NCBI GenBank assembly: GCA_036266995.1 | Contig: DATAWX010000169.1 | Location: 11,007 to 75,006 of the forward strand | DNA length: 64,000 nucleotides | Reading direction: 5' to 3' | Source: Pseudonocardiaceae bacterium | GTDB lineage: Bacteria; Actinomycetota; Actinomycetes; Mycobacteriales; Pseudonocardiaceae | Shown here: piece after piece, positions 3,345 to 27,772 of the stretch | Layout of the letters: each line of letters starts with the position of its first letter | Numbering within the stretch: position 1 is the stretch's first letter | Position numbers and translations under genes: made by a program | The notes under the pieces: generated by a model | What the model saw: the letters and a program-made list of their open reading frames with translations, nothing else | The model's database searches: none | Told to the model about the DNA's origin: nothing

Positions 3345-5224
3345 TCCTCTTCGTCTCCGCCCTGCTGCTCGGCGCGGCCGTAGTCTGGTGGCTCAAGCTG
3401 CCGCTCTATCCGTTCGAGGCCGCGGCGCTCACCGTGGTGATCGGCCTCTTCGGCTGGACCTGGCTGGCATTCCTCACCGCGCTCGTGCTGCCGTATCACT
3501 TCGCGGTCCCGCTCACGATCGGCCTGGCCGCCGGCGCCTGCGTCGTGTTGTGGAACCGACGTCGGCTGCAATGGCGCCCGCTCGAGGGCGGGCGGACCGG
3601 CTGGATCGTCTGGGGCGTCACCAGCCTGGCGACCGCAGCGCTGCTCGGACCACTGTTCTGGACGCACAGCCTCGAGACGGATTCGACGGGGGTGTACTCC
3701 GCCGGGTCCACCTGGGCCGACTTCGGGCTGCACGCGGCCATCATCAGCCACCTAGCCGTGTTCGACCGGATGCCGATGGACCTGCCGGTCGCGAGCGGGG
3801 CGCACCTGACCTACCCGTATCTCGTCGACCTCCTGTCGGCCCTGTATCTCCGCGACGGTTGGAGCCTGCACCTCAGCCTTTTCCTGCCCGGCGTCCTGCT
3901 CGCGCTGGCCATCTGCCAGCTCCTGCTGTCGTTCAGCCTGCGGCTGTTCGGCCATATCGGAGCCGCCGTCACCGGCCTCGTGCTATTTCTGGCGGTCGGT
4001 TCGGCCGCCGGGCTGCACCTCGCCTACGACGACTGGCAGCACAGCGGCCGGAGCCTACTGGCATTCCTCTCCGACCTCCCGCGTGACTACACCGTGCTCA
4101 GCAACGAGAACGGCAACGTCACCAACCTCGTCGCGAATGCCCTGCTGCCGCAGCGCTCCATGCTGTTCGGTCTCGGTGTCGCGCTCGCAGTGCTGATCCT
4201 GCTCCACACGGCCCGGCACACCGGCGACCGGCGGTACCTGCTCGTCGGCGGCGTACTGGTCGGTCTGCTGCCGACGGCCCATCCGCATTCGTTTCTCGTG
4301 TGTGGGGCCGTGCTCGGCGCCCTCACCGTGGAGGCCGCCTTGCGTCTGCGTCGGCCGCCGTGGGGTCATCTGGCGTCGGCCTGTATCGCCCTCGCACTGG
4401 CCGCGCCGCAGCTGGCGTGGCAACAGTTGGCCAACGGCGGCGGCACCGGGGGGCGGTTGCGACTCGGCTGGATGCAGAGCCCGGGCGAGTCGATCTGGGG
4501 CTTCTGGTGGACCAACTTCGGGCTGATGGGCATCTTCTTCGTGGTCTTGCCGTTCTTGCTGCTCCGCCGGGAATGGCGACACTATCTCGTGTGGTACCTG
4601 CCTTTTTTGGCGATCCTCATCGTCACCCAGGTGTACGCGTTCCAGCCGTTCGAGTACGACAATCTCAAGCTGATCTACTACGTTTACCTTATGGCCGGCC
4701 TGTTCGCCGGTTTCCTCGCCGTCCAGGTGTACCGGGCCAGCCGCTGGAACCTTGCGTTACTGCTGGCGGCCGGGCTCGTCGTGGCAATACCGGGCCTGCT
4801 GTCCGTCATCCACGAATTCCAGATGCGCTACCAGTTCGCCGACAGCTCCGACGTGGCGCTCGCCAGTTGGGTCCGCAGCAACACCCGGCCGGACGCCGTG
4901 TTCATCGGCGCCGCGCGGCCCACCCAGCCGATCGCGACACTGGGCGGCCGGTCGATCGTCCTGGGTTATCAGGGCTGGCTTTTCAACTTCAACTTGCCTT
5001 ACGACCAGCGGGAGGCCGCGGTCCGCGCGGCACTCGCAGGGCGTATCGATGACCCGGTACTGCGCAGTTTTCATCCCGATTATCTCGCCGTCGGGGCCAA
5101 TGAGGACAAGTCCTGGACGATCGACCGGACCGCGCTCGCGCGCCTGCCGGTCGCCTACGGGAACGCGGAGTGGACAGTCTACCGGCTGGCCGGTGCCGGC
5201 CTCCGTCCTCCACAGAGACCGTGA
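3335..5224 (+). CDS. Large polytopic membrane protein, GT-C-like (resembles the DUF2298 / YYY-type family from memory); paralogue of 10913-13096
   Basis: About 14 predicted TM helices. First-loop motif 'WADFGLHAAIISHLAVFDRMPMDLPVASGAHLTYPYLVDLLSA' is collinear with 'WGDTALHIGIARSFSEGDNYPPVLPIFSGETIHYHFGFDFYAGA' in the 727-aa protein. The ATG overlaps the PMT stop by 10 nt, suggesting translational coupling. Confidence 0.6.
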   Translation: MALILFVSALLLGAAVVWWLKLPLYPFEAAALTVVIGLFGWTWLAFLTALVLPYHFAVPLTIGLAAGACVVLWNRRRLQWRPLEGGRTGWIVWGVTSLATAALLGPLFWTHSLETDSTGVYSAGSTWADFGLHAAIISHLAVFDRMPMDLPVASGAHLTYPYLVDLLSALYLRDGWSLHLSLFLPGVLLALAICQLLLSFSLRLFGHIGAAVTGLVLFLAVGSAAGLHLAYDDWQHSGRSLLAFLSDLPRDYTVLSNENGNVTNLVANALLPQRSMLFGLGVALAVLILLHTARHTGDRRYLLVGGVLVGLLPTAHPHSFLVCGAVLGALTVEAALRLRRPPWGHLASACIALALAAPQLAWQQLANGGGTGGRLRLGWMQSPGESIWGFWWTNFGLMGIFFVVLPFLLLRREWRHYLVWYLPFLAILIVTQVYAFQPFEYDNLKLIYYVYLMAGLFAGFLAVQVYRASRWNLALLLAAGLVVAIPGLLSVIHEFQMRYQFADSSDVALASWVRSNTRPDAVFIGAARPTQPIATLGGRSIVLGYQGWLFNFNLPYDQREAAVRAALAGRIDDPVLRSFHPDYLAVGANEDKSWTIDRTALARLPVAYGNAEWTVYRLAGAGLRPPQRP

Positions 5225-5455
5225 TGCAGCGGAACAGCAACCCGAGGTAGTGGCGGTTGTTCGACTGCCATACCTCCGGTGGCGGTGCGTCGTAGCGGGC
5301 GTTGTACGTCCATCGGAACATCATCAGCATGGTGGGTGACGAAGCCCGCCACTGCAGCACAGTTCAGGGCACGCCGTCGAAGCTGGAACGCGTCGCGAGT
5401 AGGAGGTCATGCGGCAAGGTCAGGTGCAGGCCGAGATCAGGCGGAATCCCCCGGC

Positions 5456-6379
5456 TCAGTCGGCACGGTTCGATGATCGATCAGGTTCCGAATTGATCCC
5501 CCGGTCCCGGTCTACGCCGGCGTGGGAGTTGCCGTGAGGCTCGATGGCGCCCGCCTGGTCGGACCCGGCGTCGGATCTGGGCTCCCTCTCGGCCTCGGGC
5601 GTGGACTCCGTGTCACCGCGCAGAATGAGGTACGCGGCACCGCCTATGCCAGCCATAATCAGGATGCCCACAAACACCCAGATGGCCTTGCTCAGGCCCT
5701 GCGTGGAGGTGCTCCCAGCCGCGGTCGTCGGTTTCGCCGGCGCCGCCGCGGCGGTCGCGAAATCGGCTACCGTGGCGTTTCTCGGGATACCACTGACCTT
5801 GGTCACGGTCACCGCGTCGAAATCCGCCGTACCAACGTTGAGCTGACCGAAGTGGCCGAGCCCCATGGTCAGGTCGATGGTGGTCTGCGGACCGACCTTG
5901 ATGTAGAGGTCCAGCGGCCGCCATTGAGTGTCGGTGCGTACCGAATCGGTGACGGTGTACTGGTCGTACACCCCGAGCACAGCCGCCATATTCGCGTTCG
6001 CGCCGCTTGCCTTGACCATCGCATGAAACTGATAACTCGTGTTCGGGGTTACCCGCACCGGCACCATCACCCGAGCGTGGTTGGACTTGCGGGAGACGAT
6101 CTGCAGGAAGTGCGTGCCGTCGGCCGCCGCACCGCTGACGATCGTGGCTGTCGAGTTCCCCGGCGTCCACTCGACGAACTTCCAACCCACGGGCAGGCCG
6201 GAACCCGATTCAAACGATTCCGTCATCACCGGAGTCATTGGAGAGGGCGTTGGAGGGTCGGCGAGCCCGCTCGCGGTGCCGAGTCCGATGGACGCCAGCC
6301 ACCCTGTGATGACAGCGAGCAGAACGGTCACCGTTCGTTTCGCCCCGGTACGCGGCCCAGCAGCCGTGGCCATTCGCAA
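5456..6379 (-). CDS. Exported, C-terminally membrane-anchored protein with a carbohydrate-binding-module-like beta-sandwich domain
   Basis: N-terminal signal/anchor 'TVTVLLAVITGWLASIGLGTASG'. Jelly-roll-like region 'GWKFVEWTPGNSTATIVSGAAADGTHFLQIVSRKSNHARVMVPVRVTPNTSYQFHAMVKASG'. Ala/Thr linker, TM helix 'IWVFVGILIMAGIGGAAYLIL', then a charged tail. Confidence 0.55.
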   Translation of the reverse strand: MRMATAAGPRTGAKRTVTVLLAVITGWLASIGLGTASGLADPPTPSPMTPVMTESFESGSGLPVGWKFVEWTPGNSTATIVSGAAADGTHFLQIVSRKSNHARVMVPVRVTPNTSYQFHAMVKASGANANMAAVLGVYDQYTVTDSVRTDTQWRPLDLYIKVGPQTTIDLTMGLGHFGQLNVGTADFDAVTVTKVSGIPRNATVADFATAAAAPAKPTTAAGSTSTQGLSKAIWVFVGILIMAGIGGAAYLILRGDTESTPEAEREPRSDAGSDQAGAIEPHGNSHAGVDRDRGINSEPDRSSNRAD

Positions 6380-7039
6380 CCTCCCGGCGACGGAGCAGGC
6401 CTCGCTGCACCGCAGCTAAGAGGCATCGAACCGAGGCCTGCGCCCGACATACATGAGTAAGACGCTCATCTGATCGTGCCGGTCTTCCCTCCCACAAGCC
6501 CGCTACGCGACTCGCGACGAGTTGACGTCCGTCGTTGGTCTGCTGTTCACCAACGCCCGGGCTTTCGTGGTCCCGATGGGGACGGTGACCAGCAGATCAC
6601 GGACATCTATAGCGGTGCCTGAAACGACTCTGGCCGAAATCAGAATCCGCCCGTTTACCTCTAAAGTCATATCCTCCACAAGCTCGGCACCACCGACGTT
6701 TCCCGGTCTGCGGACGGGTCGGCGCTGTCGAGTTGTCGGGAGGTCAAGACCGGGGACAAGCGGGCTCTTCATGAGAGCGACTCAGCGCGGTCGAACGCCG
6801 TTCAATAAACGTTCACATCCGTCTTGCAGAGTCCCGCATGTGTCGGTCAGCGCCAGTCCGGGCATGAGGTTGCGGGGACCGGTTCGGGCGAGATCGTGGG
6901 TCGCGAGCTCACCCGGTCCACGCGAGCCTAAGATGCGTCACCATCGACGCTAAATCGCCCTGATTGCGCTCTCGCATCCCGTATTCGATACATATTTCGG
7001 TTAGTCTGATGTTCTTGTCGATCTGCAGGAGACGGAAGG

Positions 7040-8227
7040 GTGGCACCCCTGGAAACGGGCGAGATTCGGCATGGCGATCTGGGCGATCAACGTTCAGCAC
7101 AGTGTGCGCGGCTGCCATCCACGTGGAGTCTGCTCGGGCGTCTCGTTCTGCTCTGCGCAGGTATCCGCATCGGGCTCGAGGCCATAGGTTTGGTTTCGCT
7201 CGCCCTCCATGATCAGCCGGTCTGGACGAACGCGATTGATATGTGGAACCGGTGGGATGCGCCGCATCTGCTCCGGCTCGCCGAGGTGGGCTACGTCCGG
7301 TCATCGCCTCCGCCCAACACTGACGATCCGCTCTATATCGTCTTCTTCCCGCTTTTCCCGCTCGCCGTGCACATCGTCTCCCTCGTTGTGCAAAACCTAG
7401 TGCTGTCGGGGCTCGTCGTGTCGTTCGCCGCGAGCGTGGGAGCCGGCTACTTTCTCTTCAGATTAGTCGCCCTGGACGCCGAGGAGGCAGCGGCGTGGCG
7501 TGCGGTGTTCCTGCTGTTCTCCTTTCCTACTGCGTACTTCCTCGCTGCACCGTTCACGGAGGCTCTAGCCCTGTTCGCCGTGCTTGCCTCCGTCTACGCC
7601 GCGCGGACTGGCCGTTGGGCGGGGGCCGGAGTGGCCGGCGCACTCGCGACAGGCACCCGGGTGACGGGCATCGCCCTGGCTCCGGCGCTCCTTCTGGAGG
7701 TGCTCGCCAGGAAAACAAGCGTGAGCGATCGAGTCCGCGGGCTGGCGTGGGTCTCCCTCGCCGCGGCCGGTCTCCTGACCTATCTTGCGAGCAACCAGAT
7801 TGTTCACGGCGACCCGCTGTATTTCATCGAGGTGCAGCGGACGCATTGGTCCAACCAGGCCGCCCCCCCGTGGCAACCGGTGCAGGTAGCAATCGAATCG
7901 CTGTTAGCGGGCGGCAATGACTTCACATTCACGTTCATATACGTGGGTCGCGTCGCGGGGGTCCTCGTGGCGTTGCCACTCCTAGTCCTTGCGGTGCGGC
8001 GACTGCGACTGCCGGACGTACTTTATGGCTGGACGGCTTTCATCCTCACCCTGTCGTCATCATGGTTGATCAGCTTTCCGCGATACCTGCTCGTCCTGTA
8101 TCCGCTCTTCGTCGTTGGTGCAGGGCTTACTCGCTCACCCCGGGCGTTCATCCCGTTCGTGCTTTCCGGTACGGCTCTTCAAGTGTGGCTGATGTGGCGG
8201 TATTCTGTCGGTGAGTGGACCTTCTAA
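7040..8227 (+). CDS. PIG-V-like (GPI mannosyltransferase 2 family) integral membrane glycosyltransferase
   Basis: Family-typical N-terminal motif 'WNRWDAPHLLRLAEVGY...DPLYIVFFPLFPLAVHIVS' followed by ~9 TM helices. The start codon (GTG 7040) is uncertain. Confidence 0.65.
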   Translation: MAPLETGEIRHGDLGDQRSAQCARLPSTWSLLGRLVLLCAGIRIGLEAIGLVSLALHDQPVWTNAIDMWNRWDAPHLLRLAEVGYVRSSPPPNTDDPLYIVFFPLFPLAVHIVSLVVQNLVLSGLVVSFAASVGAGYFLFRLVALDAEEAAAWRAVFLLFSFPTAYFLAAPFTEALALFAVLASVYAARTGRWAGAGVAGALATGTRVTGIALAPALLLEVLARKTSVSDRVRGLAWVSLAAAGLLTYLASNQIVHGDPLYFIEVQRTHWSNQAAPPWQPVQVAIESLLAGGNDFTFTFIYVGRVAGVLVALPLLVLAVRRLRLPDVLYGWTAFILTLSSSWLISFPRYLLVLYPLFVVGAGLTRSPRAFIPFVLSGTALQVWLMWRYSVGEWTF

Positions 8228-8282
8228 TAACCCAACGACGACGGCTCTGGCTATCCGGCGGTAGCTGAACGCCTATGTTTAG

Positions 8283-9683
8283 TCAGGCCTTGCGAAACAC
8301 CCAGCGGCGCAACAGGAGGAACCGCAGTAAGGTGGTGGCAGCGCTAGCAGTGACGATCAGCGCAGGCTCGAGCGCGGCCGGTGGTGCGCTGTGCAGGGAA
8401 TGCGCCACGGCCAGCGTGCCGCTGGTCAGGCCCAGGGCGAGCCCGAAGACGATCAGGCCTTGAAGCTGGTGGCGGGTCCTACGCCGCGGACCGACAACCT
8501 CGAAGGTGAATCGCCGGTTGAGCGCCGTGTTCGCGATCGTGGTGCTCAGCAGGGTCAGAGCGTTGGCGCTCTGCGCCCCCAAAGGGTTGCGAAGGAGCAG
8601 GAACAAGATCAGGTACGCCACGGTGCTGAGCAGCCCGACGACTCCGAACCGCACTAGCTGGCGAGTCAGTCCTGCTGGTACGCCCGCTGTGGCCGGCTCG
8701 AGCGAGGTCCGGCCGAGCTGGGCGTGCAGGTCGTGTACCGGCAGTTTACCGGTGGCGAACGCGCGGACCAGCCGGGAAATCCCGCGGAGGTCGGCCATCG
8801 CGGTGTTGACGATGTGCACGCTGCTGTCCGGGTCGTCGATCCAGTCGACGGGGACCTCGTGGATCCGCAGCCCGCCGCGCTCCGCGAGGACGAGCAGCTC
8901 TGTATCGAAGAACCACGCGTTATCCTCGATCAGCGGCAGAAGATGCACAGCAACCTCGCGCCGGATGGCTTTAAATCCGCAGGTTGCATCGGAGAAGCGG
9001 GTGGACAGGGTGTGCCGGACCATCAAATTGTAGCTGCGGGAGATGAACTCGCGCTTCGCGCCGCGGATGACGCGCGACCCTCGGTGTAGCCGGGTTCCGA
9101 TGGCGAGGTCGGAGTGTCCTGAGACCAGCGGCGCGATCAGTGGCAGCACGGCCGCGAGGTCGGTGGACAGGTCGACGTCCATGTAGGCCAGGACAGCTGC
9201 GTCCGACGCCGACCAGACGGCGCGCAGCGCACGGCCCTTGCCTTTCTCTGGCATATGTACGACCCGTACCGATGGGAACTCCGCGGCCAGTCCCTTGGCG
9301 ACCTCAAGAGTGGTGTCGGTGCTCGCGTTGTCGGCGACGGTGATCTGGAACGGATAGGGGACCTCTGCGGTTAGGTGCGCATGCAGACGTCGCACGCACG
9401 GCTCAAGGTCGATTTCCTCGTTGTAGACAGGAATGACAATATCGACAACGGGCGAGAGCGCAGGCGGCTGCGAAGCACCGGACGTGCTGGCCGGGGCAAG
9501 GTTTCCGGACGTCACGTTGAAACAGTAAAGGAGAATGTCAACATCATTATTTGGGTTGCTCTGCGTGGATTGTTCGTCACCGGCAACGAAAGCTGCAGGT
9601 GGAACATCTCCACGGGGACGAGTGGCGGGTTCGCCGGCCCGAGCGTTTCCTTTAGTGTTGATCGTACCTAAGTAACGCTTCAT
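8283..9683 (-). CDS. Family-2 glycosyltransferase fused to a GtrA-like domain, copy 2
   Basis: Almost residue-for-residue paralogue of 337-1632 ('VVDIVIPVYNEEIDLEPCVRRLHAHLTAEVPYPFQITVADNASTD...'). The 80-aa N-terminal extension in this ORF is probably partly 5' leader. Confidence 0.85.
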   Translation of the reverse strand: MKRYLGTINTKGNARAGEPATRPRGDVPPAAFVAGDEQSTQSNPNNDVDILLYCFNVTSGNLAPASTSGASQPPALSPVVDIVIPVYNEEIDLEPCVRRLHAHLTAEVPYPFQITVADNASTDTTLEVAKGLAAEFPSVRVVHMPEKGKGRALRAVWSASDAAVLAYMDVDLSTDLAAVLPLIAPLVSGHSDLAIGTRLHRGSRVIRGAKREFISRSYNLMVRHTLSTRFSDATCGFKAIRREVAVHLLPLIEDNAWFFDTELLVLAERGGLRIHEVPVDWIDDPDSSVHIVNTAMADLRGISRLVRAFATGKLPVHDLHAQLGRTSLEPATAGVPAGLTRQLVRFGVVGLLSTVAYLILFLLLRNPLGAQSANALTLLSTTIANTALNRRFTFEVVGPRRRTRHQLQGLIVFGLALGLTSGTLAVAHSLHSAPPAALEPALIVTASAATTLLRFLLLRRWVFRKA

Positions 9684-9840
9684 GAGTGCGCCTGTGCGCC
9701 GTAAATCGCTGTTCGATGGTTGTTCATGTTGGTCTACGAAGTTCCCTGCGCGAGTCGGCTTACGCAGTGTCGTCCCGCCAGTCGCGCGAAAATGGAGGCG
9801 CGCGGCATACTCGGTCCGATCTCAGCTATTCGACGGGCCC
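8283..9840. repeat. Segmental duplication, copy 2 (GT2-GtrA gene, promoter region and a degenerate remnant of a PMT 5' end)
   Basis: See copy 1. Beyond ~9840 the similarity to the PMT gene is lost and no GT39 ORF follows. Confidence 0.8.
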
Positions 9841-10137
9841 AGCCGGCCGGCTGTTCAACTCAACCTCCCCCTGCCCACGATCCGCGCGGACGCTTCAGCG
9901 GCGTACGACGACCCCACGGCGCGCAAGTTCGAGCCTCCCGACCATCTTGCGGACGGCTCAAACGAGGACGAGTCCTGATCCCTCGACCGAAACTCGCTGG
10001 AGTGTGTGTCGGCGTGTACCAGAACGCTGATGGATGGCCCACTGGCTGACGGGCGATGGCGTCTCATACGGCGCCAAGGCGATGCATTCCCCGTAGCGCG
10101 CTTGCTGACGGCAGGCAGCGTATTTCGCCCCACTGGA

Positions 10138-10875
10138 TTAGTGGTTTTTGCGCATTATCGCTATGACGGAGGTTCCTACTGGCAGTGAAATTTTATTGTG
10201 CATCTTAGCTTCAGCCTTCAGGATGGCGATAAAGAGTTTGTTGACCGCTCTGGGTACCGGCACATATGAAGTTTCCGAATGAGCTTTGTTTTTCAGGATT
10301 TTGCTAGCAAAGCGGAAACCCACCACAAGTGGCAATGAAAAACTGATGGCATAAGATTTCTTCTCCGTCCTAAGTCCAACGTTGCCAGCGACAGCCGTTA
10401 GGGATTTTATCGTATAGCGTCGCCGGTGGTGCAACGAAACGTCGTGCTCGCTCCACAGCCATTGATACGCCGGTACGGTAATGACAATAGCGCCATCGTC
10501 TTTCAGAACTCGCTTCCACTCGAAAAGTGCGCTTTCGTGATCTTCTATGTGTTCGAGTACATCAAATGCGCCAACTACATCATAGGTTTTGTCTTTGAAT
10601 GGTAGATCAATATCCTCAATTTTCACAATATCCCGATAGCCGAGCTTTTTCACGTAAGCTACGGCGTCATTCGATGCGTCAACATTGTCGACTTTGCCGA
10701 ATTTTTCAAGCATGCCTATCGTGCCGCCCGTGCCGCAGCCAACATTCAATATAATTGAATTAGACCTATTTCGTAGAGCACGCTTCACGTAGGTCTGTAT
10801 AATTTCTAGGCGCCCTAGGTGCCACCAGTAATTTTGCTCATGCTCTGCCATGCGAGCGTACTCGCTCTTTTCCAC
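10138..10875 (-). CDS. Class I SAM-dependent methyltransferase (Methyltransf_11/23-like), compositionally foreign
   Basis: 'NYWWHLGR' N-terminal motif, SAM motif I 'ILNVGCGTGGTIGML', 'AFDVLEHIED', 'LKDDGAIVITVP'. The gene is visibly AT-rich (about 40-45% GC by eye, codons such as aaa, tta, ata, ttt) inside a ~70% GC context. Confidence 0.85.
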   Translation of the reverse strand: MEKSEYARMAEHEQNYWWHLGRLEIIQTYVKRALRNRSNSIILNVGCGTGGTIGMLEKFGKVDNVDASNDAVAYVKKLGYRDIVKIEDIDLPFKDKTYDVVGAFDVLEHIEDHESALFEWKRVLKDDGAIVITVPAYQWLWSEHDVSLHHRRRYTIKSLTAVAGNVGLRTEKKSYAISFSLPLVVGFRFASKILKNKAHSETSYVPVPRAVNKLFIAILKAEAKMHNKISLPVGTSVIAIMRKNH

Positions 10876-10912
10876 AGGCCTCTCCTCATAGAGTCATTGG
10901 TCGGTCAGTTGC

Positions 10913-13096
10913 TCAGGGTCCGTTGGTCGCCGTGACCGTGCTGGTCCTGCATGACTTGCCGACGTCGTAGTAGGAGACGTGGGCATCTGAGTAGACGCGG
11001 ACGAAGCCCCCTGGAAAGAGGTGAGGGTTGCGTTGCGGGAAGCGATCGGCCCGCGTCTCTCCGTCACTGACCTGGATATATGCGATGCCGGTGCCGCGCA
11101 GGCGCGTACAGACCGCCGCCTGGTCCGGTGCGTCGTAGATGCTCGCGATCCTATGCTCCCTCGACACATTGTCGTACCCCATGCTTTCGGCCCAGTACGA
11201 AAACCCGCCGAGGTAGACGGGCCGGCCAGCGAGCGTGGGAATCGTGTAGACGTCCCCGTACGCGGTCAAGAACACTGAGTTACGGCTCGTGTGATGTTCG
11301 ATCCAACTGATGGCGGGCTGGGCGTCGCCGAACACCGCGTATCGGGGGTCGTTCTTGACCGTCATGAAGTCGAGGAGCCCGGAGAGCACCAGGAAGAGGC
11401 AGGTTGCAGGTATCACCGCGACGGCGATGCCGCGTCCGGTGAGGGTGCCTCGCCGGCGGCTGCGCAAAGGCAGGCCGCGCCAGAGCGCGCGGGCCGTGCA
11501 GACGAGGGAGTAGGCGGCGAAAAGGTTGATCAGGACCTTCCACAGGTTGAAGACCTTGTGGTCGTGTCCACCGACATCGGTGCCTAAAACCACGATGTTG
11601 CCGAAGACGAAGATTGCCATGACAGCCACCAGAAGCTTATGGTCCGCTCTGCGCCCTACGACGGCTGCGAGGATGACGAGAGGGCCGGCGAGACCAAGGT
11701 TGAGCCACCAGTAGGAAACGAAGTCCAGGTACGACGCGGGATTCTGGAAACGGAAGTTCTCGACGAGATAGCCGTTGTGGAACGTGAGCGAGTTTTTTGT
11801 CCCGAGACCGCCGTTGAGCCAGATGATTTGGGGAAGCGCGAGCACTCCGGCTGCGATGAAGAAGGGCAGCGACTCGCGGACGGGTCCCAGCAGTACGAGA
11901 CCGCCGATTAACAGCAGTAGTGCCACCTTGCGGATCCCGTCGCTCTGTTCGAACGCGCCCGCGACGAACAGGCTCACCGACGCGAAGACCAGTACAACGC
12001 TGGGCATAGCCACCCTGCGCAGGTGACCGCTGTAGAGGTAGTACAGCACGCAGAAGAAGACCATGGACGCTACGAACACGATGCCGTTGAGCCAGAAGGC
12101 TGTTCCCGAGAGCACGCCTAGGACCGTCGCGCGTTCCTTAGGCAGGGGCTGGCGACGGTTGTCGTCGGCTTGTGCGTCGACGAGATCCCCGGCGATACCG
12201 CCGGGTCCGCGTAGATGGCGCAGAAGGGCATAACCGACGAAAAGGACGAGGGCCATCGACACGATGAGGTGTGTCTGGGTGAGGTAGGGGTTCAGCGTCC
12301 AGAAGATTGATATCCGCTCGCCACTCTGGTACGGGGCGCCCGCCAAGTACTTGTCGTGATTCCACCAGTTTTGGGGCTTCAGCGCCTCGATCACTGAGGG
12401 GTATTTGGCAAAGTAGCGAAGGAAGGCGAGCGAGCCGTTGGTGGCGAACAGGACCGCGGCCATGATACCGATGGAAACGCGCTGCCAGAGGTAGTAGGCG
12501 AGCTCGAAGACGAGCGCGATGATCGCGGTGAAGCCCAGCGCGCCGGGCAGGTTGAACGCCCATTCGATCGGCAGCCCCATGCGCTCCAGCGCGCCGGCGT
12601 AGAAGTCGAACCCGAAGTGGTAGTGGATCGTCTCCCCGCTGAAGATCGGGAGCACCGGCGGGTAGTTGTCGCCTTCGGAGAATGACCGCGCGATGCCGAT
12701 GTGGAGTGCCGTGTCGCCCCACGTGTTGAGCGAGACCATGAGCGGGTCACCGGATAGGCGCTGGAGCATCAACCAGCCCGACAGTGCCAGGGCGGCACCG
12801 ACGCCGAGTGTCGCGAGCGGTGGTGCGCGGAACGCGTCACGCCGGAACTCGCGCCAGCCCAGACCGATGATCACCGAGTTGACTCCCATGGCCACGAAGG
12901 CGCCATAGAAAGTCGCGTCGCTGCGGCCTAGGTCATGGATCAGCCATCCCGCGCCGAAAGTCACCCAGCCGGTGAGCGTGATGCTGACCACGAAGGCCCC
13001 GATGAGCCGCACAACGACGGGGAACTCCCGGAACACGCGTTGAACGATGACTAGCGCCGCCAGGAACGACAGCAGGAGATATGGCAGCACCAGCAT
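10913..13096 (-). CDS. Large polytopic membrane protein, GT-C-like (DUF2298/YYY-like), paralogue of 3335-5224
   Basis: About 16 TM helices, loop motif 'NTWGDTALHIGIARSFSEGDNYPPVLPIFSGETIHYHFGFDFYAGALERMG', soluble C-terminal domain. It lies 37 nt upstream of the methyltransferase on the same strand. GC is intermediate (~60% by eye). Confidence 0.6.
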   Translation of the reverse strand: MLVLPYLLLSFLAALVIVQRVFREFPVVVRLIGAFVVSITLTGWVTFGAGWLIHDLGRSDATFYGAFVAMGVNSVIIGLGWREFRRDAFRAPPLATLGVGAALALSGWLMLQRLSGDPLMVSLNTWGDTALHIGIARSFSEGDNYPPVLPIFSGETIHYHFGFDFYAGALERMGLPIEWAFNLPGALGFTAIIALVFELAYYLWQRVSIGIMAAVLFATNGSLAFLRYFAKYPSVIEALKPQNWWNHDKYLAGAPYQSGERISIFWTLNPYLTQTHLIVSMALVLFVGYALLRHLRGPGGIAGDLVDAQADDNRRQPLPKERATVLGVLSGTAFWLNGIVFVASMVFFCVLYYLYSGHLRRVAMPSVVLVFASVSLFVAGAFEQSDGIRKVALLLLIGGLVLLGPVRESLPFFIAAGVLALPQIIWLNGGLGTKNSLTFHNGYLVENFRFQNPASYLDFVSYWWLNLGLAGPLVILAAVVGRRADHKLLVAVMAIFVFGNIVVLGTDVGGHDHKVFNLWKVLINLFAAYSLVCTARALWRGLPLRSRRRGTLTGRGIAVAVIPATCLFLVLSGLLDFMTVKNDPRYAVFGDAQPAISWIEHHTSRNSVFLTAYGDVYTIPTLAGRPVYLGGFSYWAESMGYDNVSREHRIASIYDAPDQAAVCTRLRGTGIAYIQVSDGETRADRFPQRNPHLFPGGFVRVYSDAHVSYYDVGKSCRTSTVTATNGP

Positions 13097-13097
13097 C

Positions 13098-13289
13098 TTA
13101 GGGGCTAGTCTTTCGGGTCGAGAGCGATGGTCGGGGTGATCGTGAGGCCGTCCTGGATTCCAGCCGGCTGCGTGGCGTGGCCATTCCAGCGGTCAGGTGC
13201 TTTTTCTTGTTCAGGCTGGTGGAAGGCTCCTCCCCGAAGGTGAACAAAAGAGACCCAGTGGTCGACGAGAAGATTGCGATAAACCCCAC
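13098..13289 (-). CDS. sORF1: small ORF with a conserved hydrophobic N-terminus (VGFIAIFSSTTGSLLFTFGEE...), stop 1 nt before the ATG of the 727-aa GT-C-like gene
   Basis: GTG at 13289-13287; TAA at 13100-13098; ATG of the next gene at 13096. The first ~21 codons are homologous to sORF2 and sORF3 with conservative and synonymous changes. The rest is R/S/P-rich and unconserved, so the true product may be shorter or the element may act as RNA/DNA. Confidence 0.35.
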   Translation of the reverse strand: MGFIAIFSSTTGSLLFTFGEEPSTSLNKKKHLTAGMATPRSRLESRTASRSPRPSLSTRKTSP

Positions 13290-13561
13290 AAGGGACAGCT
13301 ACGGTTGGGTTTGAACCTTCCCCGTACACACGCTGACACAGGATCTATCACCATCCAGCAACGGCCCGAATCGCGGACCGGACTGGAAGGTTGTTGCCGA
13401 CCGTGACCAGACGAATGCAATTGGGGACGCAGCAAGGCGCATGTTAGTCACGTCCACGCGCGGGCTGACGTCGATCTAACGCTAGGGAAGGTGGCTGTCC
13501 CTTGTGGGGTTTGTCGTAATCTTCTCGTCGGCTGCTGGACTGGCCCTGTTCACCTTCAGGG
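13232..13561. repeat. Imperfect 68-bp inverted repeat (arms 13232-13299 and 13494-13561) flanking a ~194-bp core
   Basis: The reverse complement of the left arm aligns to the right arm without indels: 'gctgtcccttgtggggttt[a/g]tcg[c/t]aatcttctcgtcg' is 35/37 identical, then a divergent 12 nt, then 'tgttcaccttc[g/a]ggg'. About 54/68 identical by hand count. Confidence 0.8.
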
Positions 13562-13638
13562 GCGAGAGTGGTGCATCACCGACAGGAGCAGGAATCCCGC
13601 CGCCATTCTTGAGCGAGAGTGACGTACATCGTGCGTAA
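13504..13638 (+). CDS. sORF2: 44-codon small ORF (VGFVVIFSSAAGLALFTFRGE...), overlapping the start of the Ig-like protein gene
   Basis: GTG 13504, TAA 13636-13638. It is below the ORF-track length cutoff and was found by translating the right IR arm. It overlaps GTG 13619 of the downstream gene. Confidence 0.3.
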   Translation: MGFVVIFSSAAGLALFTFRGESGASPTGAGIPPPFLSESDVHRA

Positions 13639-14359
13639 CGGCAGATCTTTGGCTCGACTGTTGTTGAGGGTTCTGATCGCTTTGGCGGCTGGGTCAGCGT
13701 TGCTGCTGGGTGGGGTGGCCAACGCTGCCCCGTCGGTGGGCAACTCGACCTTCGACGCGCCACCGGCAGCGACGATCACCGCGCTGGATGTGACACCTGC
13801 TGCCCACTCCGCGATCGCCGCGGTCACGGTGGAGACCCTAGAGGCGACGGTGAGTCCACCGGCGGCTGGTTCGGTGCAGTTTATGCAGGACAGCACCAGC
13901 ATCGGGGCCGCGGTGCCGGTCTGGGGCGGTATCGCGTCGATGATGACGACGTTGCCAGCGGGGACGCATTCGCTCAACGCGGTGTTCACCCCGGCCGACT
14001 CGACGAGTTTCGGCTCCTCGACATCGAACACAGTGACCTACCTGGTCAGCGCTCCGCTCGGGGAGAACGCGACGGTCACCACGCTCAGGGTGTTCCCGAC
14101 CCCTGTACTCCAAGGCGTTCCGGTGGTTCTCCTGGCGAACATCGCGCCCGCCGCCGCGGTCGGAACCATCCAGTTCTTCGATGGAACGTCCGCGCTGGGT
14201 CCTCCCGTGCCGGCGACCGGCGGCTTCACTCTGCGCATTACTCCGCTATCGAAGGGTGAGCACTCGCTGAGAGCGGTTTTCACCCCCACCGATCAAACAG
14301 TCTTCGTCCCGTCGGCGTCGCTGCCAGTGGTGCTGCCTGTCGCGTCGCAGTCTCAATGA
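13619..14359 (+). CDS. Secreted protein with two bacterial Ig-like (Big_3_5-type) repeats
   Basis: Signal peptide 'RLLLRVLIALAAGSALLLGGVANA'. Two repeats of the pattern 'G.VQF.D....IG..V...GG.A.......G.HSL.AVFTP.D...F..S.S'. Confidence 0.7.
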   Translation: MTYIVRNGRSLARLLLRVLIALAAGSALLLGGVANAAPSVGNSTFDAPPAATITALDVTPAAHSAIAAVTVETLEATVSPPAAGSVQFMQDSTSIGAAVPVWGGIASMMTTLPAGTHSLNAVFTPADSTSFGSSTSNTVTYLVSAPLGENATVTTLRVFPTPVLQGVPVVLLANIAPAAAVGTIQFFDGTSALGPPVPATGGFTLRITPLSKGEHSLRAVFTPTDQTVFVPSASLPVVLPVASQSQ

Positions 14360-14459: not shown

Positions 14460-16430
14460 CTAGGACCGTGGGGGCGGTGGGGTGGAGGACAGGTCGTACA
14501 GATCCGGCATGGTGAAGTCCGCGGCGCGGCGCCGGCCCGGTTGGTCGCCGGAGGGGGTCGGGATGTTGCGGCCGGGCCAGACGATCACCGAGGCGGGCGG
14601 GAGGGTGAGCCGGCATCGAGCACCGAGTGCCGGATGATCGCCGGCCCGGGTCTGCGCGGTCAGTTCGGGGCCGCCGTCCAGGGCCACCATTACCTCGTAG
14701 ACGGCCCCGAGACAGACCACGTCGCGGACGGCACCGGGGTGCCCGTCCGAGTCCTGCTCGACCAGGTCGTCCAATATCAGGTGCTCGGGGCGGATGCACC
14801 AGGTCAGCTCCGCGTCCAGGGCGGTGCCCGCCGGCAGGACGTCGGGTCCGAAGCCGATCCGTACCTGCCCCGCCACAAGCTCCCGTGCGCCGGTCCGCTG
14901 GCCGAGGTGCAGGTTGCGGATGCCGAGCAGTCGGGCGGCGGTCGGGCTGGCCGGGCGCGCGAAGACCGCGGGTTGCGGGCCCGCCTGTTCCACCTGGCCC
15001 AGCTCCAGAATCAGCACTTCATCGGCGAGCAACGCCGCCTCGATGGGGTCGTGTGTGACGATGACGCTGGTGATCGCGGTGTCGCGTTGCAGGCGGCGCA
15101 GCTCGTGGCGCAGCTCGTCGCGGACCGGCGCATCCAGGCCAGTGAACGGCTCGTCCAGCAGCAGCAGCCGCGGGTTGCGGGCCAGCGCGCGGGCGATCGC
15201 GACCCGGCGCCGTTGGCCGCCGGACAGCTGCGACGGCAACCGAGCCTCCAGCCCGGTCAGCCCCAGCCGTCTGATCCAGAATGCGGCCAGTCCGGGCTCG
15301 GTGCCGACCCCGAACATCACCTGCTGCCACACCGGTAGGTGCGGGAGCAGGGCGGCATCCTGCGGGACGTAGCCGAACCCGCGGTCCTCCGGCGCCACCG
15401 CGGTGACATCGGCACCGTCGAGACACACCTGCCCGCCGGTCGGCCGGATCAGCCCGGCCAGCATCCGCAGGGTCAGGCTCTTGCCGGATCCCGATGCTCC
15501 GAGGATGGCCAGGTGCCGACCGGTCCTGGTGGTGTGCGCCACCTCGACCTGGAACGAACCCAGCCGGCCGGCCAGGTCGAAGGTCAGCTGCGGGCTGGCC
15601 GACGAGGTGGGGGCGCTCGGCGCCGGCAGCGGGTCCGGCACCGGGTGCCGCCGGCGCAGCCGGGGGAGGTACGCGGCCAGCAGCAGCACCACCGCGGCCG
15701 CGCCCAGGCTCGCCCCGACCGCGGTCAGCGTCGAGGTGATCCCGGTGCCGCCGAACTGCACGTAGGTGAACACCGGCACCGAGAACGGGTGGTAGGCGAG
15801 TACCACGGTGGCGCCGAACTCGCCGAAGGCCCGCAGCCAGGCCAGCAGCAGACCGGCGGCGATGCCCGGCGCGGCGGCCGGGGCCGCCACCCGGGCGAAC
15901 CGCGACCACCGGCCGTGCCCGAGGGTGGCCGCCACGTCGTCCAGGGCCGGGTCCAGCGCGGCGAACGCCGAGCGGGCGGCCACGATCAGAAACGGTGCCG
16001 CGACGAAGGTCTGGGCCAGTACGATACCGACCCGGGTGTCGGTCAGCATGCCGCCGAAGAGCTGCCCGAGCGGCGTGTACGGGCCGACCAGGTAGATCAA
16101 CAGGATGCCGCTCATCAACGGTGGCAGCGCCAACGGCAGCTGCACCGCGACCCCGACCACCGTCGAGCTTCGCCCGCGGCCCCGGGAGAGCAGGTAGCCC
16201 AGCGGGATCCCGAGAACGGCGATGATCGCTGTCGAGATGCTGGCTGTCTCCACCGACACGGCCAGTGCCGAGCCGAGCCCGGGAGTGGCCAGTGCGCTGG
16301 CCGGGGTATCGGCCACCCGGATCAGGTAGGCGAGGATCGGGACCAGCAGGTATAGCGTCAGCAGCCCGGCCAGCCACGGCAGCGGGGTGCGGAACATGAG
16401 CGCCGCCCCCCCGGCTGGCCTGGCGGTCAT
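14460..16430 (-). CDS. modBC: Molybdate-type ABC transporter, fused permease (ModB) and ATPase (ModC)
   Basis: N-terminal permease with EAA loop 'LDPALDDVAATLGHGRWSRFARV'. C-terminal ABC domain with Walker A 'GASGSGKSLTL', signature 'LSGGQRRRVAIARAL', Walker B 'LLLLDEPF', then a TOBE-like tail. Substrate is inferred from context (modA, TOBE regulator, mosAB). Confidence 0.8.
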   Translation of the reverse strand: MTARPAGGAALMFRTPLPWLAGLLTLYLLVPILAYLIRVADTPASALATPGLGSALAVSVETASISTAIIAVLGIPLGYLLSRGRGRSSTVVGVAVQLPLALPPLMSGILLIYLVGPYTPLGQLFGGMLTDTRVGIVLAQTFVAAPFLIVAARSAFAALDPALDDVAATLGHGRWSRFARVAAPAAAPGIAAGLLLAWLRAFGEFGATVVLAYHPFSVPVFTYVQFGGTGITSTLTAVGASLGAAAVVLLLAAYLPRLRRRHPVPDPLPAPSAPTSSASPQLTFDLAGRLGSFQVEVAHTTRTGRHLAILGASGSGKSLTLRMLAGLIRPTGGQVCLDGADVTAVAPEDRGFGYVPQDAALLPHLPVWQQVMFGVGTEPGLAAFWIRRLGLTGLEARLPSQLSGGQRRRVAIARALARNPRLLLLDEPFTGLDAPVRDELRHELRRLQRDTAITSVIVTHDPIEAALLADEVLILELGQVEQAGPQPAVFARPASPTAARLLGIRNLHLGQRTGARELVAGQVRIGFGPDVLPAGTALDAELTWCIRPEHLILDDLVEQDSDGHPGAVRDVVCLGAVYEVMVALDGGPELTAQTRAGDHPALGARCRLTLPPASVIVWPGRNIPTPSGDQPGRRRAADFTMPDLYDLSSTPPPPRS

Positions 16431-17362
16431 CGGCCGCCGGGAGCTGAGCTGGTCGTGGGAGTCGCCGGAGCACTGGCCGTCGTCGGCAGGACTGACTTCA
16501 GCGCCGGCGGCACCGCGGCCGGATCACCGTAGAGGGCCAGCGGCAGCACCGTCAGGCCGTCCTCCTTCAACAGCTCCTCGCCCGCTGGGGACACCAGGTA
16601 CTGCACGAAGTCCGCGGCCGGTGCGGGGTCCGGGGCCATGTTCAGCACCGCCACGGTGTAGGTCGCCGCCAGGTGCACCTGGTCGAGGCTGGCGGTCTGG
16701 ATCTTCTGCTCGCCCGCCTCGTTGCTGTAGAAGAAGCCGGCATCGAGTTGGCCGGACTCCAACCGACCGACCAGTTCGGTCTCCGGCAGTACGGTGATGT
16801 TCTGCTGGGCGGCGGCCGGCAAGGCAGGATCGCTGTAGATCTTCGCGCCGTCGGTGAGTGCCTGCTGCGCGAGCTTGCCCTTGGGGTCGACCTTGGGATC
16901 GGTGCTGCCCAGCTTGAAGCCGGGCTCGGTGATCACCTGGTACCACGGCTTGGATTTCAGGTCGGCGGCGAACTTCGAGTTCGGGTTGTAACCGATCACC
17001 AGCGGCGCCGAGGCGAACTTCACATACCAGGGCACCCAGTTGCCGTTGGCCGGCCCTTGCAGGTCCGCGTTGACCGTAGGGCTGGCGCTGATGAACACGT
17101 CACCCTGGCGAACCTTGCCCTTGATCTGCGTGGCCAGTGCACTGGATCCGGCGCTGAAACCCTGGAAGGTGTCCCCGCTTGCCTGCTCGAACTTCGGGCC
17201 GAGGCTGTGTTCCATCAGGTTGACCAGCGAGCCGGCATAGAGCACCTTCACCGGACCCTTCGGCCCGGTCGACGTGCCGGCGGTACCGCCGCCCGAACTG
17301 CTACACCCCGTCAACGCCACCAGCATCACGGTCAGCACTCCGACCGCGCCTTTGACCCGCAT
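16427..17362 (-). CDS. modA: Molybdate/tungstate ABC transporter substrate-binding lipoprotein
   Basis: Lipobox 'LVALTGCSS'. Periplasmic-binding fold motifs 'VKVLYAGSLVNLME...GFSAGSSALATQIK...GDVFISASP'. 4-nt overlap with modBC. Confidence 0.75.
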   Translation of the reverse strand: MRVKGAVGVLTVMLVALTGCSSSGGGTAGTSTGPKGPVKVLYAGSLVNLMEHSLGPKFEQASGDTFQGFSAGSSALATQIKGKVRQGDVFISASPTVNADLQGPANGNWVPWYVKFASAPLVIGYNPNSKFAADLKSKPWYQVITEPGFKLGSTDPKVDPKGKLAQQALTDGAKIYSDPALPAAAQQNITVLPETELVGRLESGQLDAGFFYSNEAGEQKIQTASLDQVHLAATYTVAVLNMAPDPAPAADFVQYLVSPAGEELLKEDGLTVLPLALYGDPAAVPPALKSVLPTTASAPATPTTSSAPGGR

Positions 17363-17374
17363 CCGTTCTGCCTC

Positions 17375-17824
17375 CTAGGTTTTTGACTGCTTTGCCAGGC
17401 TCGCCCGGGCGAGGGCGTCCCGAGGCTGCTGGGGCAGGGTGACGACGACGCTGGTGGATTTCACCGAGGCCACGGCCAGTACGCCGGGCTCCAACCCGAG
17501 CTCGTCCACCGCCTCGGCGGACATCAGCGACACGATCCGGTGCGGTCCGACCTGGATCTCCACCTTGGCCATCACCTGGTCCCGGATGACCCGGGTGACC
17601 AGGCCCGGTAACTGGTTGCGGGCAGACGCGGGCAGATGCGGGACGGCTTCTTCGGTATCCGCGGCGAGCGAGGTGGCGAACCGAGCCAGCTCAGCCCCGT
17701 CCACTCCGCGCCGACCGGACTCGGTGGTCGTGGAGACGAATCGGCCGGCGTCGGCCCAGCGCCGCAGCGTGTCATCGCTGACTCCGAGTAGGCGGGCGGC
17801 CTCACCGATCCGGAACACAGGCAT
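17375..17824 (-). CDS. Transcriptional regulator: excisionase/MerR-type HTH fused to a molybdate-binding TOBE (Mop) domain
   Basis: 'FRIGEAARLLGVSDDTLRRWADAGR' HTH. C-terminal 'SARNQLPGLVTRVIRDQVMAKVEIQVGPHRIVSLMSAEAVDELGLEPGVLAVASVKSTSVVV' is a typical TOBE domain. First gene of the mod operon. Confidence 0.8.
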   Translation of the reverse strand: MPVFRIGEAARLLGVSDDTLRRWADAGRFVSTTTESGRRGVDGAELARFATSLAADTEEAVPHLPASARNQLPGLVTRVIRDQVMAKVEIQVGPHRIVSLMSAEAVDELGLEPGVLAVASVKSTSVVVTLPQQPRDALARASLAKQSKT

Positions 17825-20051: not shown

Positions 20052-20606
20052 TCAGAGTGGCGGCTTCTCGAGGAACACCCGATTGACGTTGCTGACATAG
20101 CGCCCGCCGCTGATGTCGCCGGGCACGACCAGTCGCGGCCCGTCGGTGGCCAGCGAGTGACCGTCCTCGCTGGTCGCCAGCAACACTTCCTTGTTCTCGA
20201 AGCCCGGATCGATCTCGCCGTAGGCCACCAGCGCCCGGTAGCCATCGGTCGCGCTGACGCTGACATAGTGACGCAACTTGTCATTCTTGATCGTCGGGTC
20301 GAACTGCGGGCCCGCCTGGGTGAGTACGTCGACCAGAAGCGGGCCGACATAGGTGTGAGTCTGGGAGCCGTTACCGGCCTTGAACGTCACAGTCTCGGTA
20401 TGCGCCGGCAGAGCCGCCAAGGCGTGCACGTCAAGGAGCGCTGGGTGCGCGACGTCGCCGATCACCAGGAACTTGCCGGTCAGCACCCCGGTGAGTGGTG
20501 GCAGGTTGGGCGCGGAGGTGCTAGCGACGGCGCCGGCACTGGCGAACGCCGTCAGGGCGAGCACAGCGAGAGCAGCACACAACCGCAGTACGGGTAACCG
20601 AATCAC
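20052..20606 (-). CDS. Small secreted protein resembling the molybdopterin-binding oxidoreductase (Oxidored_molyb / YedY-like) domain
   Basis: Chosen start is GTG 20606, with SD 'aaagga' 7 nt upstream and signal peptide 'VIRLPVLRLCAALAVLALTAFASAGAVAS'. Body: 'LDVHALAALPAHTETVTF...GPLLVDVLTQAG...SATDGYRALVAYGEIDP...GPRLVVPGDISGGRYVSNVNRV'. The longer track ORF (to 20756) has an implausible N-terminus. Confidence 0.5.
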   Translation of the reverse strand: MIRLPVLRLCAALAVLALTAFASAGAVASTSAPNLPPLTGVLTGKFLVIGDVAHPALLDVHALAALPAHTETVTFKAGNGSQTHTYVGPLLVDVLTQAGPQFDPTIKNDKLRHYVSVSATDGYRALVAYGEIDPGFENKEVLLATSEDGHSLATDGPRLVVPGDISGGRYVSNVNRVFLEKPPL

Positions 20607-20881
20607 GATGGGATCCTTTCGATTGAGAACCAGGGTGCATGGGCTGGGGCTCCGCGGCGCCGCCCTACCTGGGTGGCGAGGGCGTCCAGGCGGACGACCG
20701 TGGTCGGCAACAGCGCGCGAGTGGTGCGCTGTTATAAGGAAATTCTTAGTTCGCATTGGTACCCTTGGCGACGCAGGGATGCCCGGACTGCTGTCCGGGC
20801 AGGCACAGTCAGTGACTGGCGAACCAGTGGCATGCCAACCACGTCGTCACTGATGTCTTGCACACAGGGAGTGAGTGGGTC

Positions 20882-20911
20882 GGTGACCGGGAGCGGACAC
20901 TCCCGGTCACC
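20882..20911 (-). terminator. Perfect 12-bp stem / 6-nt loop hairpin 10 nt downstream of sORF3
   Basis: 'ggtgaccgggag cggaca ctcccggtcacc'. No U-tract follows on the minus strand, so it may be an attenuator or processing structure rather than a classical intrinsic terminator. Confidence 0.3.
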
Positions 20912-20921
20912 ATTAAGGCGG

Positions 20922-21089
20922 TCACGACACTTTCTGCGCAGGTCCGGCGAAGAACGTCGCAGAAGTCCGTGGATGAGGGGCACTACGCCGATGCATCCCG
21001 CAAACAGAGATCTCACCGGGGAGACCCTGCGGCCCGAAGGTGAACAGCAGATGTTCGGCAGTCGACCAAGGGACTACGACAAGCCCCAC
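20922..21089 (-). CDS. sORF3: third copy of the conserved module (VGLVVVPWSTAEHLLFTFGPQ...)
   Basis: GTG 21089-21087, TGA 20924-20922, 55 codons. The 68 nt 'gctatccctaGTGgggcttgtcgtagtc...ctgttcaccttcggg' align without indels to both arms of the 13.2-13.6 kb repeat (about 48/68 versus sORF1). It lies ~315 nt upstream of the secreted Mo-oxidoreductase-like gene on the same strand. Confidence 0.25.
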   Translation of the reverse strand: MGLVVVPWSTAEHLLFTFGPQGLPGEISVCGMHRRSAPHPRTSATFFAGPAQKVS

Positions 21090-21578
21090 TAGGGATAGCT
21101 AAACGGCCGAGCGTTCAGCACAACGCCGATCAGCGCTGCTGTCGAGCTCCGTGTACCGAGGGCTACCCCGTCACCCGCTCATGGAGGCCTGGCATTTGCT
21201 GAGCCAGGCCACTGATTCGTGCGATTGTGCGAAGTCAACTACGCTGCGGCTCCGTATCGGCGGATGAATAGCCATCAGGCGACTTGACGCGAGAGTCTCT
21301 TGCGGTTGGCTCACTTGCCGGGCGGTAGCGCTCCCGGTTCCACAACGCTCACGCGAATGTGCCCCGCCGATCACCTATCGTGGTTCTCCTTGGGTGCATC
21401 CTGTACGTGTATAGCCACAGTAAGTGATTCACCGGAATGCCACCTCTAGGCCAGCGCCAAAACGTCGTGTACCGATGCAAGAACTGATGGAATCTAATAG
21501 GGTCGGGGCGCATCGTTTCGGGCGTTATGAGCGCTCTGGGAGGCTTGCCGGCCGACCGGAGCCCAAGGAGGTTGGGAG

Positions 21579-27716: not shown

Positions 27717-27772
27717 CCTTCGTCCCGCCCGCCTCGGTCAGTGCCCGTGGTTCCAACCTCGGCAAAGCGAGG

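Follow-up and report, generated by a model that had tools for sequence, protein, structure and literature searches.

PhoB of E. coli and PhoP of B. subtilis are regulators of the OmpR/PhoB family that act on phased direct repeats replacing the -35 element, and under phosphate limitation B. subtilis PhoP brings about the switch to teichuronic acid (tua operon). We know of no long conserved composite module described for either system. In mycobacteria, leaderless small open reading frames (sORFs) and regulatory upstream open reading frames have reportedly been found. The complex PhoP operators of Streptomyces contain up to six units, some of which are poorly conserved (PMC2275107, Sola-Landa et al. 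2008). In S. coelicolor, about half of the regions bound by PhoP in chromatin immunoprecipitation show only a half-box, and PhoP activates phosphate-free cell-wall polymer clusters that include a membrane glycosyltransferase-like protein and GtrA/bactoprenol glucosyltransferases (PMC3479208, Allenby et al. 2012), while PhoP of Actinosynnema, a member of the Pseudonocardiaceae, binds GTTCACNC (PMC9019756). The DNA analyzed here, referred to as the window, is a stretch of 64,000 nucleotides (nt) from a Pseudonocardiaceae bacterium (assembly GCA_036266995.1, contig DATAWX010000169.1, positions 11,007 to 75,006). It carries an inverted repeat between two divergently transcribed genes, one for a membrane protein of 727 amino acids (aa) and the other for a secreted protein with a Big_3_5 (bacterial Ig-like) domain. 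An interpretation made from the letters of this DNA, hereafter the sequence-only reading, had proposed that the two arms encode homologous hydrophobic sORFs. Our comparative analysis suggests that what was read as two sORFs is most likely a duplicated promoter/operator module, conserved and non-coding, that contains a putative PhoP-type motif.

The inverted repeat itself was confirmed. Its arms (13232-13299 and 13494-13561) agree as reverse complements at 54 of 68 positions with no indels, and in a single register (i+j=26793) the match extends to 13227-13302 and 13491-13566 (59/76), giving an arm-to-arm identity of only 78-79%. A repeat finder recovered a 48-nt core at 13255-13302 and 13491-13538 (88% identity) together with a 20-nt piece (85%) in the same register. 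The chance of such a match is approximately 9e-19 per register, or 4e-9 after all position pairs in 64 kb are taken into account. The reading frames exist as described: they translate into VGFIAIFSSTTGSLLFTFGEE... and VGFVVIFSSAAGLALFTFRGE..., the stop of sORF1 falls 1 nt short of the ATG of the 727-aa gene at 13096, and sORF2 overlaps the GTG of the Big_3_5 gene at 13619. A third copy of the module, missed previously, was found in the window with a 19-nt probe from the arms; it matches either arm at 48-49 of 67 positions in the same register and without indels.

The search for further copies that had been suggested as a check revealed a family of about 24 members. Two degenerate patterns were scanned against 185,579 representative genomes and the Joint Genome Institute (JGI) metagenomes. 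Six real matches were identified among the genomes, all in Pseudonocardiales or Pseudonocardiaceae metagenome-assembled genomes (MAGs), and eleven real loci in the metagenomes, whereas the pattern-only matches at L003, L006, L007, L013, L017, L020, L024 and L027 (L-numbers denote loci) were chance occurrences inside coding DNA. An nhmmer search over the loci of the pattern scan yielded 19 unique strong copies, and loci fetched via orthologues of the 727-aa protein added five. The hosts are uncultured organisms, represented by these MAGs and by soil metagenomes. Every copy can be aligned without gaps over about 66 nt and most over about 96 nt, and approximately 28 columns do not vary across the first eleven. 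Within the module lies an 11-mer that begins with GTTCACCTTC; this stretch of 10 nt is shared by 18 of the 19 strong copies, the exception being L015 with GTTCACCTAC, and in most copies G comes next. Weak, degenerate copies that have lost the GTTCACC core of this 11-mer were observed in L009 (2739-2822, plus strand) and L005 (4635-4718, plus strand), with E-values of 0.008-0.08. As the degenerate copy in L009 lies 70 nt from the copy on the Big_3_5 side and is divergent to it, a divergent pair may be ancestral and decaying in the L009 lineage.

The 11-nt unit of the left arm, GTTCACCTTCG, matches the PHO-box unit G(G/T)TCAYYYR(G/C)G, a consensus derived from Streptomyces (PMC2275107), at 10 of 11 positions, and the corresponding units, built on the GTTCACC core, score 9.7/11 on average over 24 copies. 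Columns 28, 39 and 50, which are in phase with this unit (11, 22 and 33 nt upstream), form local maxima of 6.1-6.8/11 over a background of about 4.5, none of them reaching core quality. Self-similarity of the module peaks at lags 11, 22, 33 and 44. A period of 11 is supported by column shuffles (z=3.77, p about 3e-4), the only one between 5 and 15 to stand out; for lag 22 taken by itself, p is about 7e-4 (0.046 when corrected for all lags), and the strongest periodicity is that of 22 nt, reflecting alternating unit types. The module has a fixed length of approximately 70-95 bp, and in most copies a hexamer TGAnAT is located at a fixed distance of 30 nt downstream of the G of GTTCACC. Between orthologous loci the module is 79-88% identical, compared to 79-85% for their coding sequences and 46-54% for the adjoining upstream 80 nt. 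These values are 79-82% for the left module upstream of 727-aa orthologues (L023/L025, L028, L030; upstream 80 nt, 46%) and 85-88% for the right module upstream of Big_3_5 orthologues (L009, L005, L016, L023/L025; upstream 80 nt, 46-54%). On this comparison the module is under purifying selection.

The position of the module relative to genes is also constrained. In all contexts except one, the GTTCACC strand faces a gene within approximately 30-420 nt, and seven intergenic regions between co-directional genes favour the GTTCACC-sense orientation, with one in the opposite orientation. Three paralogous contexts (L008, L012, L018) have a Shine-Dalgarno (SD) sequence and ATG after the module at a constant distance, 56 nt counted from the G of GTTCACC. 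The module was identified upstream of a pstC-pstA-pstS-like operon and of a gene for a PstS-domain protein, and it is adjacent to phoU in six loci; the PstC protein encoded after the module in L008/L015/L021 is a TIGR02138 equivalog (237.7 bits, cut-off 196). In L029 and L031, whose 727-aa gene sits inside an operon, the module is absent. The link with genes for membrane or exported proteins, noted earlier for the two arms, holds across the family (Table 1).

Table 1. Features of the window and genomic contexts of the module in related loci
Locus	Feature	Position	Strand	Evidence or remark
Window	Left module copy	13208-13305	-	Columns 1 to about 98; nhmmer 69-78 bits; sense toward 727-aa gene
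Window	PHO-box-like 11-nt unit GTTCACCTTCG, left copy	13235-13245	-	Motif score, alignment
Window	Spacer between divergent modules	13306-13487	.	GC 59%, against 66% for the window
Window	Right module copy	13488-13585	+	nhmmer 73-77 bits; sense toward Big_3_5 gene
Window	PHO-box-like unit GTTCACCTTCA, right copy	13548-13558	+	Motif score, alignment
Window	Third module copy	21010-21105	-	PHO-like unit at 21035-21045; orthologous copies in L022 and L011
Window	Mechanical open reading frame sORF1, 63 aa	13098-13289	-	Unsupported as a gene
Window	Mechanical open reading frame sORF2, 44 aa	13504-13638	+	Unsupported as a gene
Window	Gene of 727-aa polytopic membrane protein	10913-13096	-	Presumed target of left module
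Window	Gene of secreted Big_3_5 protein	13619-14359	+	Presumed target of right module
Window	Open reading frame with signal-peptide-like segment	20052-20756	-	Weak Oxidored_molyb match; downstream (sense) of third copy
L008/L015/L021	phoU, module, 147-aa gene, PstC, second permease, PstS-like protein, 506-aa gene
L015/L021	Second copy, preceding 944-aa protein			PstS-like C-terminus
L005/L009/L026	First copy before Big_3_5 gene, then phoU
L005/L009/L026	Second copy between phoU and sigma-70 gene			Sole orientation exception
Window, L023/L025, L028, L030	Module, then 727-aa membrane protein
L030	Module, then GT2
L028	Module, then UbiA
L018	Module, then HtrA-like protease
L019	Module, then ABC exporter
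L004	Module, then NIDO/FG-GAP secreted protein

The copies thus form a non-coding family with no conserved RNA fold, an 11-nt periodicity, a match to the PHO consensus, purifying selection on the module, a rule of orientation and an association with pst and phoU genes. With moderate confidence, we regard the two arms as copies of a conserved promoter/operator module of PhoP type, one for each divergent gene; the inverted repeat would then exist because the two divergently transcribed genes each carry their own copy. This comes close to one alternative of the sequence-only reading, a shared operator for the divergent operons. The regulator is most likely a member of the OmpR/PhoB family, with PhoP as the best candidate. 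In the proposed mechanism, the module would consist of direct repeats phased at 11 bp, and the one nearest the promoter, GTTCACCTTCG, comes close to the consensus of actinobacterial PHO-box units. A dimer-forming regulator of this family, likely that of the PhoR-PhoP system, would nucleate on this unit, spread cooperatively across the weaker in-phase units, and activate (or at some sites repress) a weak promoter with TGAnAT as its -10-like element; if TGAnAT is the -10, the unit would lie at about -42, a position typical for activation. Genes for envelope glycosylation, secreted proteins and a phosphate transporter would in this way be tied into one regulon. We infer the protein that binds the module, the transcription start and the direction of regulation.

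Several observations weigh against a PhoP operator of this kind. Just one unit per module is of core quality, although good PhoP binding needs at least two (PMC2275107), and the units next to it, though conserved, depart from the consensus (GGAC..., GGTCG...). The 5' half of the module, TAGCTGTCCCTTGTGGGGTTTGTCG, is strongly conserved yet not PHO-like, and its best matches to the consensus are out of phase; given this dissimilarity to PHO units, a second factor may be involved. A consensus scan detected no sigma-70-type promoter in or around the modules, and at the position of the expected key A, the -10-like hexamer mostly carries G. In L005/L009/L026 the module between phoU and the sigma-70 gene points into the 3' end of phoU. 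The window itself contains no phoRP, phoU or pst gene, and tblastn searches with phoU, the pstS-like gene and the 147-aa protein found no counterpart in it.

The alternative that the arms encode translated hydrophobic small peptides, leaderless or GTG-initiated, which regulate or are co-translated with the adjacent genes, can be examined directly in the family. The frame concerned has the fewest stops of the sense-strand frames (5/19 copies, scored over columns 5-82), GTG is found in 15/19 copies, the translations are similar (VGF..I...FTFG), and the three differences between the left arm of the window and that of L023 are all synonymous. However, the three differences between the right arms are all non-synonymous, and the presumed start reads GTA in 4/19 unique copies. 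These include the left arm of close relatives L023/L025, whose locus is 98% identical to the window over the entire intergenic region, and of the four left-arm lineages upstream of the 727-aa gene two have GTG (window, L030) and two have GTA (L023/L025, L028). In most copies a TAG stands in frame four codons before this position, which leaves no other start codon to use. Two copies (L012, L015) have stops in frame within 21 codons, and hydrophobicity is lost through the appearance of P, W, R, E and H. The codon-phase test that had been suggested gave entropies of 0.70, 0.62 and 0.67 and six invariant columns each at positions 1, 2 and 3, with no third-position excess of variation; the reverse-strand frame, open in 17/19 copies, was equally negative. 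Frame-breaking indels, named in advance as evidence against a peptide, do occur downstream of the core: orthologues keep nucleotide blocks on either side of indels (1, 2, 4 and 6 nt), so that the tails of the reading frames are read in different frames and are unconserved as peptides. The SD-like GAAGGT is about 12 nt (right) and 24 nt (left) from the GTG and is absent in most other copies. Neither a conserved start with an SD at a working distance nor an intact frame with a codon-phase substitution pattern was thus found across homologues, in contrast to what is expected of a leader peptide. The short GTG frame abutting an operon in a high-GC actinobacterium resembles mycobacterial leaderless sORFs, but the start codon, intact frame and codon-phase signature are missing across the module family. 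Peptide selection is therefore unsupported, the sORF model appears largely refuted by these comparisons, and we consider translation of the arms very improbable.

It is also conceivable, though rather unlikely, that the module is transcribed as an unstructured 5' leader or the seed of a small RNA (sRNA), with the invariant UUCACCUUCGG read by an RNA-binding protein, an sRNA or the ribosome. Such a leader would also agree with how strictly the strand of the module follows that of the downstream genes, the invariant CACCUUC is complementary to the SD-like GAAGGUG and UUCACCUUCGG resembles an anti-SD sequence, and in the subgroup of the third copy the similarity runs on downstream over more than 140 nt until it reaches a strong hairpin (20882-20911). 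Yet neither strand shows conserved structure or covariation: RNAalifold on 18 copies gave -3.6 (sense) and 0 kcal/mol (antisense) with no compensatory pairs, single-sequence folds of the module were no better than shuffles, and no Rfam family passed the gathering threshold anywhere in the window, nor did searches around the copies at E<=1-10 turn up a relevant one. The module accordingly showed none of the marks of a structured cis-regulatory RNA such as a riboswitch, an attenuator or a known Rfam family. The GAAGGTG/CACCTTC pairing, put forward earlier as a translation-coupled switch, is not conserved and was not recovered by RNAalifold. Furthermore, an 11-nt periodicity, that of the DNA helix, is unexpected for RNA, the distance of only about 45 nt from the module to the ATG in L008/L012/L018 fits promoter geometry, and no promoter-like conserved block exists upstream, where the 80 nt are 46-54% identical. 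A related and similarly doubtful possibility is a lineage-specific composite regulatory element rather than a plain PhoP operator. It could be an enhanceosome-like promoter of about 90 bp in which a PhoP-type regulator and a second factor on the TAGCTGTCCCTTGTGGGGTTTGTCG half occupy alternating 11-bp units, or a leader without structure that is transcribed and recognized as RNA through its invariant UUCACCUUCGG; in both cases, phosphate uptake would be co-ordinated with envelope glycosylation and secreted proteins.

The same DNA architecture may instead serve a different regulator, such as an envelope-stress or other OmpR-family two-component system, or PhoP with a second factor on the 5' half, the pst/phoU links then representing partial overlap between regulons. 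Most downstream genes are indeed envelope-related or secreted, including the HtrA-like protease and the ABC exporter, and the conserved non-PHO 5' half and the single consensus unit are in line with this. On the other hand, the invariant unit fits the PHO consensus at 10/11, two copies precede pstC/pstS-like genes, phoU is adjacent in six loci, and control of cell-wall polymer clusters by PhoP has been described (PMC3479208); we see this as an unlikely but serious possibility. Much less plausible is a promoter of the extracytoplasmic function (ECF) sigma type on the opposite strand, GTGAAC-N17-CGAC, by which each arm would drive the far-side gene through a long 5' untranslated region overlapping the other transcript. 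An invariant GTGAAC and a conserved CGAC 17 nt apart on the reverse strand do have ECF-like geometry, and the reverse orientation suits the sigma-gene context (L005/L009/L026) and several divergent intergenic regions. In seven co-directional regions, however, all that this promoter would produce is antisense RNA running into the gene before it from that gene's 3' end (for example phoU, Bac_transf, Cupin_5 or the 506-aa gene), and it leaves aside the fixed sense-side distance to SD and ATG in L008/L012/L018. Finally, the sequence-only reading had considered the ends of an element resembling a miniature inverted-repeat transposable element (MITE) or the repeats of an invertible promoter cassette. 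The inverted arms do flank a 188-nt core of lower GC, but most other loci have single arms beside orthologous genes whose proteins are only 70-85% identical, and these copies are syntenic, always intergenic and oriented, and lack terminal inverted repeats or target duplications in the alignment. The spacer is collinear and not inverted in both relatives compared (L023/L025, 98% identical), the neighbours scanned include no recombinase or transposase, and the arms are only 78-79% identical to each other; we regard either version as very improbable.

If the PhoP-type operator is compared with the Streptomyces PHO boxes, it resembles the class III complex operators in its 11-nt direct repeat units with a GTTCACC core, in putative helically phased arrays with one or two good core units and poor extension units, and in its location at promoters of pst/phoU-linked genes and of genes comparable to phosphate-free wall-polymer clusters. 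It differs in that each module has one near-consensus unit only and a 5' half that is not PHO-like, that the strongest periodicity is 22 nt, and that paralogous promoters share the module over its full 70-95 bp, free of indels and with about 28 positions invariant, which is far more information than a PHO box needs; PhoP binding is here a prediction. As in the PhoB and PhoP regulons of E. coli and B. subtilis, phosphate uptake would be coupled with envelope remodelling, but the half-sites of those systems (CTGTCAT; TT(A/T/C)ACA) are different and belong to other organisms. The comparison favours an operator of PHO-box type that, in this uncultured lineage, takes the form of an unusually long module free of indels. 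Should PhoP be the regulator, the module could serve as a marker of a phosphate/envelope-remodelling regulon in an uncultured soil clade of Pseudonocardiaceae, and a cluster for protein O-mannosylation with GT-C-like proteins and several secreted proteins would be linked to phosphate limitation. The long indel-free conservation and the non-PHO 5' half raise a small question of how complex response-regulator operators are built. For annotation, a tempting but wrong pair of small proteins is removed; high-GC actinobacterial intergenic DNA readily shows apparently homologous sORFs where promoter modules are duplicated.

The 727-aa protein, annotated in GenBank as from a Pseudonocardiaceae MAG, had no match in Pfam, NCBIfam and PDB sequence searches; a distant homologue is named 'Chlor_Arch_YYY domain-containing' in one source. 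Its gene heads a run that also contains a methyltransferase gene and a GT2-GtrA gene, within a glycosylation cluster (337-13096) that encodes two GT2-GtrA fusions, a PMT-family O-mannosyltransferase, a PIG-V-like mannosyltransferase, a carbohydrate-binding module (CBM) protein, a methyltransferase and two large membrane proteins without family match (629 and 727 aa). Directly upstream of its ATG, a second conserved block of about 40 nt (CCATCGCTCTCGACCCGAAAGA..., 13097-13140) is kept in L028 and L030 despite diverged sequence between block and module, and contains no obvious SD. No open reading frame, RNA family or notable repeat was found in the spacer between the two modules. The first genes after the module in L008 (5660-6085) and L012 (108-521) encode homologous proteins of 142-147 aa without family match that share ...WRFMSANNRSLARSA...GQWVWRVRV.... 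The HtrA-like protease of L018 (approximately 7500-7547) has in common with them no more than about 13 residues at the start (MA.A.F.VV..AR) and the SD/ATG spacing, which suggests a duplication that took in both the promoter and the 5' end of the gene. In L019, a 13-nt tandem repeat of CACAACGGGATGT (10301-10478; 13.8 copies, 92% matches) fills the gap between the module and the ABC exporter gene.

The hairpin near the third copy has a perfect 12-bp stem, GGTGACCGGGAG-N6-CTCCCGGTCACC, located about 110 nt downstream on the minus strand, and is retained in the orthologue L011 through a compensatory C-G to T-A change. It could be the terminator of a short transcript of the third copy or an attenuator before the open reading frame at 20052-20756. 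A match to the sRNA Scr6925 near this copy was rejected (26 bits, gathering threshold 50; driven by this one terminator-like hairpin; absent from L011), and so was a hairpin between GTTCAC and a downstream GTGAA-like hexamer, which pairs inconsistently (L008, L012 and L018 cannot form it) and was not recovered by RNAalifold. Canonical PHO boxes were sought upstream of phoU in L005, L009 and L008, where phased units of 9/11 and one 9+10/11 pair were present; these count as weak support, because the degenerate consensus gives many background matches. Elsewhere in the window, two consecutive PHO-like units, GTTCACCCCGA and GGTCACTGACC (9/11 each), occur in an apparently non-coding stretch at 27771-27792 (minus strand), but as they overlap a perfect palindrome, CGAGGTCA-TGACCTCG, this site may be a hairpin or the site of another factor. 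A molybdate-uptake-like cluster (14460-17824, minus strand) with a ModA-like binding protein (SBP_bac_11), a fused permease-ATPase with TOBE, and a ModE-like regulator with MerR-type helix-turn-helix and TOBE domains is convergent with the Big_3_5 gene and apparently unrelated to the module. A molybdenum link, prompted by this modABC/ModE-like cluster and the weak Oxidored_molyb match, was dismissed, as neither a molybdenum cofactor (Moco) riboswitch nor another Rfam match was found and the association does not recur at other loci.

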